Shown here: in pieces, positions 43,661-50,758 of the stretch
How positions within the stretch are numbered: position 1 is the stretch's first letter
Layout: each line of letters starts with the position of its first letter
NCBI RefSeq assembly: GCF_054482525.1
Contig: NZ_CM137006.1
Direction: 5' to 3' (one strand)
DNA length: 64,000 nucleotides
Notes under the pieces: generated by a model
Seen by the model: the letters and a program-made list of their open reading frames with translations, nothing else
Database searches by the model: none
Told to the model about the DNA's origin: nothing
Program-made: the position numbers and the translations under genes

Positions 43661-46600
43661 TTATTTCCGTACCCGATGTCGGTGCAGCCACATCAGCTTA
43701 TACGCCGCCGGGATAATAAACAGCGACAGCAAAGGCGCGGTGATCATGCCGCCAATCATCGGCGCGGCAATCCGGCTCATCACCTCTGATCCTGCCCCCG
43801 TTCCCCACAGAATCGGCAGCAGACCAGCGATAATCACCGCCACCGTCATCGCTTTCGGGCGCACGCGCAGGACCGCGCCGTGATACAACGCCTCATCCAG
43901 CTTCTGCTCGCTGAATGTTTGCGGATTATTCAACGACGGCTCGGCCTCTATGGCGTGACGTAAATACATCAGCATCACCACGCCAAATTCGGCGGCGACC
44001 CCGGCAAGGGCAATAAAACCGGTGCCCGTCGCCACGGAAAGATGAAAGCCCATCCACCACAGCAACCAGATGCCGCCCACCAGCGCAAACGGTACGCTGC
44101 TGATAATCAGCAACGCTTCGCCCACCCGACGGAACGCCAAATACAACAGCACGAAGATGATCATCAACGTCATCGGCACCATGAGTTTCAGCTTATGGTT
44201 GGCGCGTTCCAGTAGCTCGAACTGCCCGGAGAATGCCACGCTGGTGCCCGGTTTTAACTGCACTTTTTCAGCTATCGCTTTTTGCAGATCGTGAACCACC
44301 GACACCATGTCACGATCGCGGGCATCGATATAAATCCAGCTCGTCGGGCGCGCATTCTCGGTTTTCAGCATCGACGGTCCGGTAGAGACTTTAACGTCGG
44401 CCACGTCTGCCAGGGTGATTTGCTGCTTCATCGGCGTCAGGATCGGCAACTGGCGCAGTGCCTGCGGACTATCGCGCCAGCTTTGCGGATAACGCAGATT
44501 AATTGGATAACGGGCAATCCCTTCCACCGTTTCGCCAACCATCGCCCCGCCCACCGCAGAAGTCACAAACAACTGCACATCCGCCACCGTCATACCGTAA
44601 CGCGCGGCTTTTTCACGGTTAATCTCAACGTTGATATAGCGCCCACCTTCCAGACGCTCGGCAAGCGCAGAAGCTACGCCTGGCACCGTTCGCGCCACTT
44701 CTTCAATTTGCTCCGCCATCGCGTCGATATCCGCCAGCACAGTGCCGGAAACTTTAATGCCGATGGGGCTTTTAATGCCAGTCGAGAGCATATCGATACG
44801 GTTACGAATTGGCGGCACCCACAGATTCGCCAGCCCCGGCAGCCGCACGGTGTTATCCAGTTCCTCGATGATTTTGTCCATCGTCATGCCTGGCCGCCAC
44901 TGATCTTGTGGCTTAAGCTGGATGGTCGTTTCTACCATCTCCAGCGGAGCAGAATCGGTGGCGGTTTCCGCTTTCCCGGTTTTGCCAAATACCCGCGCCA
45001 CTTCAGGTACGCTCATAATCAGCTTGTCGGTTTTTTGCAGCATACTCGCCGCCTCTGCTGCGGAAATCCCCGGCAGCGTCGATGGCATATACAACAAGTC
45101 GCCTTCATTGATCTGCGGTAAAAATTCCCCGCCAACTTTATTGAGCGGCCAGAGAACCGTCAGCACCGAAAGCGCCGCCACCAGCAGCGTGGTTTTCGGC
45201 CAGTGCAGTACTTTCAGCAACAGCGGATGATAAACACGAATCAAAAAGCGATTGAGCGGGTTACTGCTTTCCGGCGGAATTTTGCCACGGATCCAGTAGC
45301 CCATCAGGATAGGGATCACTACGATCGCCAGCAGCGCCGCACCCGCCATCGCATACGTTTTGGTGAACGCCAGCGGGCCAAACAGATGCCCTTCCTGCCC
45401 TTCCAGGGTGAAGATCGGGATAAACGACAACGTGATAATCAGCAGACTGATAAACAGCGCCGGCCCCACTTCAACAGATGCATCGGTGATCACCTGCCAG
45501 CGCGTTTTATTATCCAGCGTGGCGTCAGGATGCTGGTGCTGCCACTCTTCCAGCCGTTTATGTGCATTCTCGATCATGACGATAGCGGCATCGACCATCG
45601 CCCCGACGGCAATCGCAATACCGCCCAGCGACATAATATTGGCGTTCAGTCCCTGAAAGTGCATGACAATAAAAGCAATACACAACCCCAGCGGCAACGA
45701 AATAATCGCCACCAGCGCCGAGCGCACATGCCAGAGAAACAGCGCACAGACTACCGCCACCACAATAAACTCTTCCAGCAACTTGCCGCTGAGGTTGTCG
45801 ATGGCGCGGTCAATGAGCTGGCTGCGATCGTATGTTGTAACTATCTCCACGCCTTCCGGCAGACTGCTTTTCAGCGTTTCCAGTTTGTCTTTCACGGCGG
45901 CGATCACTTCTCGGGCGTTTTTGCCGGAGCGCAGGATCACCACCCCGCCCGCCACTTCGCCTTCGCCGTTCAGTTCGGCAATGCCCCGGCGCATCTCCGG
46001 GCCAATCTGGACCTTCGCAACATCGCGCAGATAAACGGGCACGCCATTTTCACTGGCTTTTAAAACGATGTGATTAAAGTCGTCGAGCGTTTGCAGATAG
46101 CCGCTGGCGCGCACCATATATTCCGCTTCCGCCAGTTCGATCGACGAACCGCCCGCTTCCTGGTTTGAAGCATCCAGCGCGCTTTTTACTTCGGCGAGAC
46201 TGATGCCATATTGCGCCAGGCGCTGAGGATCGATAACCACCTGATACTCTTTCACCACACCGCCTACCGACGCCACTTCCGCAACGTCAGGAATGGTTTT
46301 CAGCTCATATTTGAGAAACCAGTCCTGCAATGAGCGTAAATCGGCAAGATCGTGCTTACCGCTGCGATCCACCAGTGCATATTCATAGATCCAGCCAACA
46401 CCCGTGGCATCTGGCCCCAGCTCGGCGCTGACTCCCGCAGGCAGCTTACCCTGTACCTGGTTGAGGTACTCCAGCACCCGCGAGCGCGCCCAGTATGGAT
46501 CGGTGCCATCTTCGAAAATGACATACACATAAGAGTCGCCAAACTGCGAGAAACCGCGCACAGTCTTCGCGCCAGGCACCGACAACATAGTGGTGGTTAG

Positions 46601-46804
46601 CGGATAAGTCACCTGATTTTCAACGATTTGCGGTGCCTGACCGGGATAGCTGGTTTTAATAATCACCTGCACATCGGAGAGATCCGGCAGCGCATCCACT
46701 GGCGTGTTAATGATGGTCCAGGTGCCCCAGATACTCAGAAACAACGCGCCCATCAGCACCAGAAAACGGTTCGCCACCGAGCGACGAATAATCCATTCAA
46801 TCAT
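43661..46804 (-). CDS. cusA: Cu(I)/Ag(I) efflux RND transporter CusA
   Basis: 1047-aa [30 protein letters not shown]...; RND family. Confidence 0.95.
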
Positions 46805-46815
46805 TGGTTATTCCC

Positions 46816-48039
46816 TCAATGCGCATGGGTAGCACTTTCAGAGCGCATCCGCTCCAGTGCGCCAGAAATATTGGCTTCGGAATCAATCAGGAACAGGCCG
46901 CTGGAAACCACCTTTTCACCTTCCGCCAGACCAGAGCGTAATGCGGTGACGCCTTGCGATGCCTGGAAAACGGCAACGCGTTTCGGTACAAAGCGCCCGT
47001 CGGCATCAACGGTAATCACCCGCTGTTCGCTGCCGGTATCAATCAGCGCTTGTGACGGAATGAGCAGCATCGGTTCGCTGGCGGTGTTGAGTTGCAACCA
47101 GGCGTTCATTCCCGGCTTTAGCGCCTCGTCGGTGTTGTCGACTTCCAGGCGCAGCTGCAGCGTGCGGGTTGCGGCATCCACGCCGGGTAGCAGCGTCCAT
47201 TTGCGGATGGTGAGTGTTTTATCAGGTCGCGCCGGAACGGTGAGCGTAAACTGCGAGGCATCTTTCACCAGCCAGGCGATGGACTCCGGGATCGCGGCAG
47301 TGATCCACACCGGGTCCATACCCTGAATTTTCGCGACCACGTTATCTTTGGCGATATTCATTCCCGCGCGCAGATCAAACGCGGTGATCACGCCATCAAT
47401 GGGCGCTTTGAGCGTAAAGCGAGTCTGTATTTTTTGCGTGGCGATCAGGCGGCGAATATCCGCCTCCGGCATTCCCGCCAGTCGCAGTCGCTCAAGAATG
47501 CCTTCAGTCTGGGTCGCCGTACCGCCGGTTTCGCGCAGCAGTAAATACTCACTCTGCGCTTCCACCCAGTCGGGAATGGTCAGGTCGAGAAGCGGTGTGC
47601 CCTTTTGCACTTTATCGCCCACGGTAAGCGGATACACCTTGTCGATAAACCCGGCAGCGCGAGCCTGCACAATGGCATACTGATACTCGTTGTAACTGAC
47701 ATTCGCCGGGAAACTCTGGGCAAAAGTCAGCGGTCCGCGCGTGACGGTAGCCGTTTTCACCCCCAGATTCTGCGTCTGGGTCGGGTCAATGCGTACACCA
47801 GACGCAGAACTCTCTTCATCGGCATATTTCGGCACCAGATCCATATCCATAAACGGCGATTTACCTGGTTTATCGAACCGCGTATTGGGATACATCGGGT
47901 CGTACCAGAATAAGATTTTACGTTCTGCGGTCGGCGTTTTTTCTGCGGGCGGTTCAGCCTTTGCAAACCAGGTAAAACCTGCCGCAGAAATAATACCGCC
48001 CGCGATCATGCTGCCGATAATAAGCGCGATTTTTTTCAT
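46816..48039 (-). CDS. cusB: Cu/Ag efflux membrane fusion protein CusB
   Basis: 407-aa ORF with N-terminal anchor; follows cusF. Confidence 0.95.
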   Translation of the reverse strand: MKKIALIIGSMIAGGIISAAGFTWFAKAEPPAEKTPTAERKILFWYDPMYPNTRFDKPGKSPFMDMDLVPKYADEESSASGVRIDPTQTQNLGVKTATVTRGPLTFAQSFPANVSYNEYQYAIVQARAAGFIDKVYPLTVGDKVQKGTPLLDLTIPDWVEAQSEYLLLRETGGTATQTEGILERLRLAGMPEADIRRLIATQKIQTRFTLKAPIDGVITAFDLRAGMNIAKDNVVAKIQGMDPVWITAAIPESIAWLVKDASQFTLTVPARPDKTLTIRKWTLLPGVDAATRTLQLRLEVDNTDEALKPGMNAWLQLNTASEPMLLIPSQALIDTGSEQRVITVDADGRFVPKRVAVFQASQGVTALRSGLAEGEKVVSSGLFLIDSEANISGALERMRSESATHAH

Positions 48040-48054
48040 CTCATTAAACCTGGG

Positions 48055-48387
48055 TTACTGGCTGACTTTAATATCCTGTAATAAAGAAAGGTTGCCCTGC
48101 TGGACAAAATTAAACGCCACTTTGTCGCCGGTTTTAATTTCACTCATTTTCGTCTGCGGGGTGATGGTAAAGCGCATGGTCATCTCCGGCCAGTTCACGG
48201 CAGCAATCGGATCGTGATGGATGGTGATTTTTTTGCTTTCCAGATCAATACCTTTTACCACGCCAGTGGCGCTAATAACCTGTGGTTGTGCTTCGCTCAT
48301 GGTTTCATGATGATGTTCGTTAGCCTGGGCATTAAAGCCAATAACAGTAAACAGACTGAACATTACGACTTGCAGTGCTTTTTTCAT
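48055..48387 (-). CDS. cusF: Periplasmic copper chaperone CusF
   Basis: 110-aa ORF with signal peptide and metal-binding H/M/W residues. Confidence 0.95.
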   Translation of the reverse strand: MKKALQVVMFSLFTVIGFNAQANEHHHETMSEAQPQVISATGVVKGIDLESKKITIHHDPIAAVNWPEMTMRFTITPQTKMSEIKTGDKVAFNFVQQGNLSLLQDIKVSQ

Positions 48388-48408
48388 TTATTCTCTCCTG
48401 GAGTTAAA

Positions 48409-48535
48409 AGTCATACTCTAAATAATTCGAGTTGCAGGAAGGCGACAAGCGAGTGAGTCCCCAGGAGCTTACATAAGTAAGTGACTGGGGTGAGCGAACG
48501 CAGACGCAGCACATGCAACTTGAAGTATGACGAGT
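48409..48535. repeat. ERIC/IRU element (enterobacterial repetitive intergenic consensus, ~127 bp)
   Basis: Core gagtccccaggagcttacataagtaagtgactggggtgagcgaacgcag with inverted termini aagtcatactc / gtatgacgag, between cusC and cusF. Confidence 0.7.
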
Positions 48536-48544
48536 ATATTGCTG

Positions 48545-49918
48545 TCAACCGCCACCAAGTGCGGCATATAAAGAAATTTCGTTAACCTGACGGGCATAAT
48601 TCAGGTCAAGTAAAGTTTGTCGGGTTGCAAATAAAGAACGTTCGGCATCCAGCACTTCCAGATAGCTTACTGCGCCGTGCTGATATAATGCCCGCGCCCG
48701 TTGCAAAGTAATTTGCAGCGACGCCAGATAACGCTGCTGGGCGCTGATTTGATCGTTCAGGCTTTGACGTAATGCCAGCGCATCTGCCACTTCTTTAAAG
48801 GCGTTCTGGATTTTCTGTTCATAATTCACCACCGATTGCTGCTGGCGAATTTCGGCGATATCCAGATTGGCCTGGTTGCGTCCGGCATTAAAAATGGGGA
48901 TCTCAATTTTAGGAATAAAATTCCACATCCCGCTGCTGGCGTTAAATAATGACGACAGATCGCTGCTGGCGGTTGATATTCCGCTGGTCAGGCTTATAGA
49001 TGGGAAAAATGCCGCGCGTGCGGCCCCAATATTGGCATTAGCCGCCATTAACGCGTGTTCAGCTTCCATAATATCCGGGCGCTGCAATAAGATTTGCGAC
49101 GACAAGCCCGCCGGTAATTTAACGCTTTGCAGGCTGTCGCTGTTTACTGTCTGCGCTTGCGGCAGCTTGCCGTAGCTTCCCAATAACAGTTGCAATGCAT
49201 TATTCGCCTGCGCCAGTTCCCCCTGACGTTTAGCGATGTCGCTGCGGGTACTTTCAATCACCCCGCGAGCCTGTTCCAGCGCCAGAACATTGCTGCTACC
49301 TGTCAACAGTTGTTTTTCGACAAACGCATATGACTGCTGATAATTACGCAGCGTTTCTTCGGCGATTTGCAATTGCGCATACGCCAGCTGCTGATTGAAA
49401 TAGCTTTGCGCGACATTAGAAACCAGCAGAATATGCACCGCGCGCTGGGCTTCCTCAGTGGCTAAATAATTTTGGCGCTCGGCTTCGCTCATGTTCTTTA
49501 AGCGACCGAAAAAATCGAGATCAAAGCTGGCGTTAAGGCCAGTCGAGAACTCCCGCGTCGTGGCTGAATCGCCTTTAAGATTGCCGCTCCAGCTGCCGCT
49601 GCCCTCGCCATTGAGCTGTGGGTAGCGGTCGGCATCGGTCAGACGATATTGCGCCCGCGCTTCCTGCACTTTCAGCGTCGCCATGCGCAAATCCCGGTTA
49701 TTCACCAGCGCCTCGCTAATCAGCGTCTTCACCTGATTATCAACAAAAAAGGTGCGCCAGCCCGCGTTCTGGTAGTTATCTGCTGCGTTAACCAGGCCGT
49801 TCTGGTTGAGTGAGAACTGCTGCGGCACGGGCATTGCCGGGCGCTGATAATCCGGTGCCAGTGAACAACCGGTTAGCGCAAGGGCCACACAAAATGGCAG
49901 AAGTTTACAAGGAGACAT
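48545..49918 (-). CDS. cusC: Outer-membrane efflux lipoprotein CusC (TolC family)
   Basis: 457-aa ORF with lipobox LALTGCSLAP. Confidence 0.95.
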   Translation of the reverse strand: MSPCKLLPFCVALALTGCSLAPDYQRPAMPVPQQFSLNQNGLVNAADNYQNAGWRTFFVDNQVKTLISEALVNNRDLRMATLKVQEARAQYRLTDADRYPQLNGEGSGSWSGNLKGDSATTREFSTGLNASFDLDFFGRLKNMSEAERQNYLATEEAQRAVHILLVSNVAQSYFNQQLAYAQLQIAEETLRNYQQSYAFVEKQLLTGSSNVLALEQARGVIESTRSDIAKRQGELAQANNALQLLLGSYGKLPQAQTVNSDSLQSVKLPAGLSSQILLQRPDIMEAEHALMAANANIGAARAAFFPSISLTSGISTASSDLSSLFNASSGMWNFIPKIEIPIFNAGRNQANLDIAEIRQQQSVVNYEQKIQNAFKEVADALALRQSLNDQISAQQRYLASLQITLQRARALYQHGAVSYLEVLDAERSLFATRQTLLDLNYARQVNEISLYAALGGG

Positions 49919-49987
49919 AGGCTCATAATTTCTGGTGATTTTATGCCGCCAACTTTACTCGCCAGGCTCTGATTTTCCGGTGACAGG

Positions 49988-50009
49988 AAAATGACAAAAT
50001 TGTCATTTT
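49988..50009. promoter_or_regulatory. CusR box (perfect palindrome) in cusC/cusR divergent promoter region
   Basis: AAAATGACAAAATTGTCATTTT, an exact inverted repeat; matches the CusR recognition sequence as I recall it. Confidence 0.65.
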
Positions 50010-50074
50010 GCCAATAAGCGATTGCCATCTGATCCCGCTACTCTAGAATTGCCCGGGCAACATGCGGAGGAAAT

Positions 50075-50758
50075 ATGAAACTGTTGATTGTCGAAGATGA
50101 AAAGAAAACCGGAGAATACTTGACCAAAGGGTTAACCGAAGCCGGTTTTGTGGTCGATTTGGCCGACAACGGGCTGAATGGCTACCATCTGGCGATGACC
50201 GGTGATTATGACCTGATAATCCTCGATATTATGCTGCCGGACGTGAACGGCTGGGATATCGTGCGCATGTTGCGCTCCGCCAATAAAGGGATGCCGATTC
50301 TGTTGCTTACCGCGCTTGGCACCATTGAACATCGCGTCAAGGGGCTGGAGTTGGGGGCAGATGACTACCTGGTGAAGCCGTTCGCTTTTGCTGAACTGCT
50401 GGCGCGGGTGCGCACTCTACTGCGGCGCGGGGCGGCGGTGATTATCGAAAGTCAGTTTCAGGTTGCCGATCTGATGGTCGATCTCGTCAGCCGCAAAGTC
50501 ACCCGCAGCGGTACGCGCATCACTCTGACCAGTAAAGAGTTTACTCTGCTGGAGTTTTTCCTTCGCCATCAGGGCGAAGTGCTGCCCCGCTCGCTTATCG
50601 CCTCGCAGGTATGGGACATGAATTTTGACAGCGATACCAACGCTATTGATGTGGCGGTGAAGCGGCTACGCGGCAAAATCGACAACGACTTTGAGCCGAA
50701 GCTAATTCAGACCGTGCGCGGCGTGGGTTACATGCTTGAGGTGCCGGATGGTCAGTAA
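50075..50758 (+). CDS. cusR: Copper-responsive response regulator CusR (OmpR family)
   Basis: 227-aa [23 protein letters not shown]... with receiver and winged-helix domains. Confidence 0.95.

Follow-up and report, generated by a model that had tools for sequence, protein, structure and literature searches.

We conclude with near certainty that the gap between cusC and cusF in the DNA analysed here (64,000 nt of contig NZ_CM137006.1, NCBI RefSeq assembly GCF_054482525.1; hereafter, the window) holds one copy of the ERIC/IRU/RU-1 repeat, that this copy was inserted once, in an Escherichia lineage, into the TA of the ancestral TAA stop codon of cusC, and that about 30% of E. coli (K-12 among them) now carry it, almost always together with a TGG codon of cusC changed to TGA. 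The block is an ordinary ERIC copy, an element of a known kind at a known position. ERIC, IRU or RU-1 elements of Enterobacteriaceae are reportedly the subject of work by Sharples and Lloyd in 1990, Hulton et al. in 1991, and Wilson and Sharp in 2006. What goes beyond an earlier note on this DNA is the insertion into a stop codon with its linked TGA, the 30/70 polymorphism, and the series of four haplotypes. A role of the element in regulation is plausible, at most at the level of about two-fold, and any effect on expression is probably modest.

Identity and position of the element

The window is E. coli DNA (best match strain PCN033, 100% identity). The cusCFBA genes lie on the minus strand, divergent from cusRS on the plus strand, and the features of the locus are collected in Table 1. 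The gap between cusA and cusB measures 11 nt, and the spacer between cusC and cusF 157 nt (48388-48544). Alignment with alleles that lack the element delimited an ERIC block of 125 bp, which takes up 80% of this spacer and ends 24 nt upstream of the cusF ATG; the cusF Shine-Dalgarno sequence, AGGAGA, lies at 48394-48399.

Table 1. Features of the cus locus in the window.
Feature	Coordinates	Strand	Evidence
cusA, 1047 aa	43661-46804	-	ORF list, annotation
cusB, 407 aa	46816-48039	-	ORF list, annotation
cusF, periplasmic metallochaperone, 110 aa	48055-48387	-	ORF list, annotation, sequence
TAA in cusC frame, translation end if TGA were TGG	48404-48406	-	translation
ERIC (IRU/RU-1) miniature inverted-repeat element	48412-48536	-	empty-allele alignment; near-identity to ybhI-ybhJ, pgk-fbaA and preT-yeiS copies; sub-threshold V_AS5 match
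Terminal inverted repeat, cusF-proximal arm (3' arm in mRNA)	48413-48436	.	inverted repeat I1; motif scan; constrained folds
ERIC core inverted repeat, apical stem-loop of hairpin	48459-48490	.	exact 32-nt match; inverted repeat I2; paired in predicted fold
Terminal inverted repeat, cusC-proximal arm (5' arm in mRNA)	48514-48537	.	inverted repeat I1; basal helix of predicted fold
Relic of ancestral CusC C-terminus: CAG CAA and TA of former TAA, TA being the target dinucleotide of the insertion	48537-48544	-	allele alignment
Derived cusC stop TGA (ancestral TGG, Trp); CusC 460 to 457 aa	48545-48547	-	alignment; outgroups TGG; 1,602 ERIC-carrying genomes TGA versus 2 TGG
cusC, outer-membrane channel, 457 aa	48545-49918	-	ORF list; annotation of identical loci; PDB 3PIK matches residues 18-457

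The earlier note had placed an ERIC element between cusC and cusF, and this is borne out: the 32-nt core CCCCAGGAGCTTACATAAGTAAGTGACTGGGG was matched exactly, once in the window and never in 100 shuffles, and the block is 97-99% identical to dispersed copies. The boundaries proposed there (48409-48535) fall within 1-3 nt of ours. The element was also said there to fill nearly the whole gap; its share is 80%. The core quoted there was found, but in the strand antisense to the mRNA, the operon being on the minus strand.

We took the defining features of ERIC elements as tabulated in PMC2229807 and PMC3184786. The cus block shows the length (125 bp, against ~127 bp), the core, terminal repeats with a long imperfect hairpin, dispersed copies, and an extragenic site within a transcribed region, between two genes of one operon. 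Its core forms an inverted repeat with arms at 48459-48472 and 48477-48490, and its 24-nt terminal inverted repeats are 79% complementary. Inside the cusF-proximal arm lies an AU-rich stretch, GAAUUAUUUAG (48418-48428), in which a motif scan placed an RNase E-like motif of the RN|WUU type.

Queried by itself, the element had near-identical counterparts in all complete E. coli genomes; the median number of megablast places was six per genome. The ybhI-ybhJ copy matches the cus copy at 127 of 128 positions, and those at pgk-fbaA and preT-yeiS are 97-99% identical to it; the core is invariant among the four loci, and the block common to the copies reads TATACTCG...GAGTAT. A TA target-site duplication is listed as an ERIC feature (PMC2229807 Table 1; PMC3184786). 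The cus copy is flanked by TA on the left and TG on the right (TG in 1,602 genomes, TA in none); the right flank is also TG for the pgk copy and is TA for the ybhI and preT copies. A scan of the element against Rfam, which has no curated ERIC family, gave only a sub-threshold match to V_AS5 and a match to isrH that was set aside as due to chance.

Distribution of the element in E. coli

The E. coli matches to a 751-bp locus query fell into two classes, full length or 125 bp shorter. Haplotypes were counted by searching 5,426 complete E. coli genomes for exact 35-nt junction sequences. The element is present in about 1,604 of them (29.6%), and the site is empty in at least 3,414. The element occurs with TGA in 1,602 genomes and with TGG in two. 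Empty sites with TGG come in two variants, ...TAATTTTT... (2,444 genomes) and ...TAACTTTT... (968 genomes), and an empty site with TGA was found in two genomes; 408 genomes were left unclassified by the exact junction probes. Carriers include K-12 derivatives and BL21/BLR, and the site is empty in CFT073, ATCC 25922, and O157:H7.

The empty allele reads GGC GGT TGG CAG CAA TA|A CTTTTAACTCCAGGAGAGAATAA ATG and encodes a CusC of 460 aa that ends in WQQ; around the insertion point, it reads TGG CAG CAA TA|A CTTTTAAC. The occupied allele reads GGC GGT TGA CAG CAA TA[125 bp]A CTTTTAAC..., the sequence after the 125 bp being also given as ACTTTTAAC. The distance from the cusC stop to the cusF start is thus 23 nt in the empty allele and 157 nt with the element. 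The right junction was ...GAGTATGACTTTT in 1,602 genomes and ...GAGTATAACTTTT in none. Since all 1,602 right junctions carry TG and none TA, a single insertion event is favoured, and independent insertions were ruled out as the cause of the element's occurrence on different flanking haplotypes.

The cusC-ERIC-cusF block was also found on records classed as plasmids, namely NZ_CP110860.1 (113 kb, strain TSW4848-W1) and three other places. Such records may represent either pieces of chromosome or cus loci that have truly been mobilised.

The cusC stop codon and C-terminus

The insertion point lies within the ancestral stop codon of cusC (TA|A), and nearly all carriers have the TGG to TGA change three codons upstream of it. 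In the occupied allele, the first nucleotide of the element is 8 nt past the cusC UGA, and the element overlaps the former TAA. Were TGG kept, CusC would be translated for 43 further residues after WQQ, YTRHTSSCMCCVCVRSPQSLTYVSSWGLTRLSPSCNSNYLEYDF, and reach 503 aa. The two genomes with the element and TGG are 1919D3 and BHUCD02; PGAP calls cusC a pseudogene in both ("missing C-terminus").

The solved CusC structures (3PIK and relatives) represent the 457-aa K-12 form. K-12 and these structures stand for a minority, derived allele, a point to bear in mind in extrapolating K-12 cus expression or CusC termini to pathogenic lineages such as CFT073 and O157:H7, with a 460-aa CusC and a 23-nt spacer.

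Ancestry and order of events

The site is empty in E. whittamii (TGG CAG CAA TAA) and in three Citrobacter species (GGT TGG GCA GAA TAA). As these outgroups all lack the element and have TGG, the empty site with TGG is ancestral. A genome from a cryptic clade, Escherichia sp. MOD1-EC7003, has the element with TGA. Its flanks match the window at a uniform 92-98%, identity not changing abruptly at the element, and this evenness gives no support to a recent import into the cryptic clade. Between MOD1-EC7003 and the window, the element differs at one of 125 positions and the adjacent 3' end of cusC by about 6%. A conservation higher than that of the flanks fits either constraint or gene conversion among ERIC copies.

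At least two diverged flanking haplotypes harbour the element in E. coli (that of the window and that of K-12), and both also occur with an empty site. Because occupied and empty alleles are thus spread over diverged backgrounds, the element is an old allele that has been shuffled by recombination.

The order of the insertion and the TGA change can be read in two ways, the rare haplotypes (the element with TGG, the empty site with TGA) being present in two genomes each. An insertion followed by a compensatory TGA would explain why two rare changes lie 8 bp apart. A TGA that arose first, with the element then entering a TAA that was no longer translated, would need no deleterious intermediate; this order is supported by the empty-site TGA genomes 1919D62 and Z1323PEC0010, which are unrelated and have a K-12-type CusC protein together with the linked K-12 marker at 48569. 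Each order would require one awkward step, be it a crossover inside 8 bp, a loss that was precise although microhomology is lacking, or a chance coincidence. Precise excision is an unlikely source of the empty-site TGA alleles, as the ends of the deletion would be without microhomology; recombination or an ancestral intermediate is a possible one. A simple back-mutation as the origin of TGG in 1919D3 is doubtful, as this strain departs from the K-12 type at the linked site 48569 too.

It is conceivable, though improbable in our estimate, that the element destroyed the cusC stop, that TGG to TGA was a selected compensatory nonsense mutation that blocks a 43-residue, five-cysteine tail on an outer-membrane channel, and that the element is kept in about 30% of E. 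coli and in the cryptic Escherichia clade because its hairpin retunes the CusC:CusF ratio about two-fold. If this were true, the four natural haplotypes would form an allelic series in which the function of an ERIC element in E. coli could be tested directly for the first time. Linkage is enough to account for the association with TGA, without any selection for a regulatory role.

Two side observations concern the history of the locus. Strains 1919D3 and 1919D62 come from the same study (swine faeces, Henan) and carry reciprocal rare haplotypes, the element with TGG and the empty site with TGA, with the SNP at 48569 swapped too; such a pattern is expected from reciprocal exchange or from a mix-up of co-sampled strains. 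The cus locus is also unusually diverse in E. coli: the GTDB species representative is 89-98% identical to window positions 46058-50387 (300-bp bins) and thereby no closer to the window than E. whittamii is, which suggests deep, recombining haplotypes.

Predicted RNA structure

In mRNA sense, the predicted fold of the spacer has a free energy of -44.7 kcal/mol, against -33.3 ± 3.5 kcal/mol for shuffled sequences (z = -3.26). The opposite strand, which is not the operon transcript, has a predicted fold of -55.4 kcal/mol (z = -4.76). In a wider context, the predicted helix spans the UGA codon and sequence just past the element. A site scan detected no promoter-like or terminator-like sites within the element, which speaks against an internal promoter or intrinsic terminator there. 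The predicted cost of opening the cusF initiation region (-18 to +15) is practically the same for the occupied allele (5.96 kcal/mol) and a reconstructed empty one (5.93 kcal/mol), and occlusion of the cusF ribosome-binding site was ruled out on these values.

A ribosome stopped at the UGA was modelled by forcing at least 12 downstream nucleotides to be single-stranded. In the folds obtained under this footprint, the basal helix melts and the hairpin shifts its register (GUCAUACU/AGUAUGAC), leaving AUUAUUUAG (48418-48426) unpaired next to a GA|AUU motif at 48428-48424. The two registers are predicted to be only ~0.7 kcal/mol apart, and two nucleotides of the shifted one come from the flank (inverted repeat I4).

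Expression of the cus genes

RNA densities along the operon were taken from published supplementary tables as counts per nucleotide and scaled to cusC = 1. The values for cusC, cusF, cusB, and cusA were 1:2.0:1.4:0.36 in MG1655, which has the element (2 mM Cu; FPKM ~3,298 for cusC, ~6,657 for cusF, and ~1,184 for cusA), and 1:4.6:2.0:0.50 in CFT073, which lacks it and has the 23-nt spacer (AGXX; DESeq2 baseMean 8,607, 9,539, 14,922, and 9,776, divided by RefSeq gene lengths). The cusC/cusF ratio was 2.3-fold higher in MG1655 than in CFT073, the cusA/cusB ratios agreed (0.26 versus 0.25), and cusF/cusB was 1.48 versus 2.35, all in unmatched studies with one dataset per genotype, in which strains, inducers (copper versus the silver-ruthenium AGXX), libraries, and count measures (FPKM versus baseMean) differ, so that an effect of the element cannot be isolated.

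All four genes were co-induced in K-12, cusF giving the most abundant RNA of the operon. As cusC RNA was lower than cusF RNA both with and without the element, the basic imbalance is independent of it. The sign of any effect of the element hints at protection of cusC RNA, at less cusF RNA, or at both, and not at the destabilisation of upstream transcripts described for Yersinia. In an RNA-seq supplement for BW25113, cus counts were in single digits.

The RNA density of cusA was ~0.25 of that of cusB in both MG1655 and CFT073, a reproducible four-fold drop within the operon that is unrelated to the element. In MG1655, with the ERIC allele, microaerobic growth was accompanied by changes in cusCFBA RNA of log2 -3.4 to -4.8 and by increases of the four proteins of 1.2- to 1.7-fold (PMC8910356, Table 1). 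The authors of that study regard the mechanism behind this divergence of RNA and protein as post-transcriptional and unknown.

Possible effects on the cus operon

The earlier note had proposed that the element lies within the cusCFBA transcription unit, that it can form a stable hairpin, and that it could set the expression of cusC relative to cusFBA. The first two points agree with what we found: no promoter- or terminator-like site was detected in the element, and a long, stable hairpin is predicted in mRNA sense. A comparison of presence and absence across E. coli, which the note had proposed as a check, revealed the polymorphism described above, and its background statement that co-transcribed ERIC elements can alter mRNA stability is found in the literature, in reviews that summarise De Gregorio 2005 (PMC2229807, PMC3184786, PMC10969869). 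The regulatory proposal found less support: 70% of the genomes do without the element, cusF is predicted to be equally accessible, and cusC RNA is below cusF RNA in both strains.

Our leading explanation, put forward tentatively, is that the element acts as a structured intercistronic spacer that uncouples cusC from cusF and as a barrier to 3' exonucleases, shifting the ratio of the two at most about two-fold. Intercistronic REP hairpins are said, after Newbury et al. in 1987, to protect upstream mRNA in this way. From the organisation of the operon, we infer that the element is co-transcribed in the cusCFBA mRNA, where it would form a long hairpin of ~125 nt with the cusC stop codon included in its base. 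The cusC stop and the cusF start would move from 23 to 157 nt apart and lose their close proximity. The 3' end of the cusC segment would become structured and could hold up 3'-to-5' exonucleases once cleavage had occurred downstream; the predicted fold does place a stable stem-loop 3' of the segment to be protected, as a REP-like barrier requires. The net result would be a shift of the cusC:cusF RNA ratio of ~2-fold towards cusC, brought about neither by a promoter or terminator nor by occlusion of the cusF ribosome-binding site, and the element would be dispensable.

Nearly as likely as the barrier and uncoupling mechanism, though still short of an even chance, is that the element is a neutral passenger, selfish DNA in a permissive spot with an effect below ~1.5-fold on cus expression or on copper and silver resistance, its frequency of 30% being due to drift, hitch-hiking, and recombination. 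The absence of the element from 70% of E. coli genomes and from the outgroups points this way, as do the mosaic of four haplotypes on different flanking backgrounds, the unchanged predicted access to cusF initiation, the lack of a detected promoter or terminator, and a cusC RNA level below that of cusF whether or not the element is there. Against neutrality, an intercistronic hairpin of 125 nt and -44.7 kcal/mol should affect decay or coupling to some degree, and cusF:cusC differs 2.3-fold between the one dataset with and the one dataset without the element while cusA:cusB is identical. The low divergence of the element from that of MOD1-EC7003 (1/125, against ~6% in the adjacent cusC 3' end) also sits uneasily with neutrality, but gene conversion could explain it too.

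An effect in the opposite direction, lowering cusC relative to cusFBA, is unlikely. In the one experimental study of co-transcribed ERIC elements, done in Yersinia (De Gregorio 2005, as summarised in PMC2229807 and PMC10969869), elements adjacent to stop codons are reported to destabilise upstream transcripts, contrary to the barrier model. Applied to cus, ribosomes at the cusC UGA, 8 nt before the element, would melt the basal helix and uncover an AU-rich site for RNase E in the 3' arm, and after cleavage there the cusC segment would be degraded. The element does abut the stop codon, in the orientation of the ybhI copy (1 nt past the ybhI TAA) and of the RU-1 fusions that end in NSNYLEY; the modelled footprint of at least 12 nt would shift the register and free the AU-rich stretch beside the GA|AUU motif; and cusC RNA density in MG1655 is half that of cusF. 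However, cusC:cusF is even lower in CFT073 (1:4.6), so that the imbalance exists without the element, whose apparent effect, if any, is the opposite one. The alternative register is moreover a weak prediction, needing two flanking nucleotides and lying ~0.7 kcal/mol from the original fold, and the A/B orientation was assigned by an indirect comparison.

A lowering of cusFBA by partial termination, by Rho-dependent polarity in a longer untranslated spacer, or by sequestration of the cusF Shine-Dalgarno sequence is very improbable: the spacer does lengthen (23 to 157 nt), the hairpin is followed by UUUU, a local 181-nt fold pairs some Shine-Dalgarno bases with the cusC 3' end, and cusF/cusB is lower in MG1655 than in CFT073, but the element has no terminator-like site and an AU-rich basal stem, opening the cusF initiation region is predicted to cost the same in both alleles, and cusF, cusB, and cusA are strongly induced downstream of the element in K-12, with cusF RNA the highest.

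Comparison with known systems

The cus block shares with the ERIC/IRU/RU-1 family its size, core, terminal repeats, hairpin, near-identical dispersed copies, and transcribed intergenic site. Nothing categorical separates it from the family; its particulars are a place in the former stop codon of the upstream gene and a right flank of TG that does not make a clean TA duplication. A search of the literature for ERIC with cusC/cusF or cusFBA found nothing relevant in a scope that left out De Gregorio 2005 and Wilson and Sharp 2006.

The Rfam family RF02818, V_AS5 (Vibrio RNA AS5), aligns with the cus element end to end (window 48411-48530, model positions 1-129, E = 8.5e-8), but its 43.6 bits fall short of the gathering score (96), and the element is no member by Rfam's own threshold. 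This "antisense RNA" family was probably built on an ERIC-like repeat of Vibrio.

Among the E. coli copies, the one at ybhI-ybhJ is the closest parallel (127/128 identical), with the same orientation to the upstream gene and a start 1-2 nt past the ybhI TAA. It differs from the cus copy in being essentially fixed (present at ≥80% coverage in 5,425 of 5,426 genomes, versus ~30%) and in leaving the upstream stop intact. The other orientation is seen at pgk-fbaA and preT-yeiS, where the upstream stop is 61 and 150 nt away, in contrast to the cus and ybhI copies, which abut stop codons. This contrast matches an orientation rule for Yersinia that the abstract of De Gregorio 2005 is said to contain.

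At three of the four loci, the element is preceded by (A)A(A)TA (the ybhI stop was read in ATCC 25922, retrieved locus 1499-1503), a hint that the preferred target may overlap TAA stop codons. In E. coli B1.H1.39, the preT-yeiS copy holds a 78-bp internal insertion (~1575-1652 of the retrieved locus) with GC-rich palindromes (GGCCCATCCATGGGCC..., GCGGATTT...), inserted at the fixed position in the 5' arm that enlarged ERIC variants also show.

Fusions of RU-1 (ERIC) to the 3' ends of ORFs, in which the frame of the element ends in NSNYLEY, have been described by Delihas (2007, PMC2759123). In the E. carotovora amidase ECA3499 and Y. pestis YPO3245, as in cusC, the normal stop was removed and the same frame of the element (...NSNYLEY) was opened (PMC2759123). 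In cusC, however, the upstream TGA blocks the extension in >99.8% of carriers, and the extended form is encoded in 1919D3 and BHUCD02 only.

ERIC elements serve to type strains all over the world, yet the evidence on their function comes essentially from one Yersinia study. The cus locus offers a clean natural experiment, in that an operon with and without the element is available in thousands of strains, along with two rare intermediate haplotypes. The Y. enterocolitica elements next to stop codons (De Gregorio et al. 2005), in the form in which reviews present them, resemble the cus copy in being co-transcribed, as is probable at cus, in adjoining the upstream stop, and in an AU-rich stretch of the 3' arm that is exposed in the constrained folds. 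The constrained cus fold mirrors the model of an RNase E site unmasked by ribosomes that these reviews (PMC2229807, PMC3184786, PMC10969869) credit to De Gregorio 2005. The lowering of the upstream transcript which they report is, in contrast, unsupported at cus by the crude comparison of MG1655 with CFT073 (1:2.0 versus 1:4.6).

REP hairpins such as that between malE and malF belong to another repeat family, ~35 bp long, GC-rich, and without sequence similarity to ERIC. Work on these intercistronic hairpins reportedly goes back to Higgins in 1982 and Newbury in 1987. What they share with the cus element is a stable hairpin between cistrons that could protect the upstream mRNA from 3' exonucleases, and this likeness provides the working model for the element between cusC and cusF.
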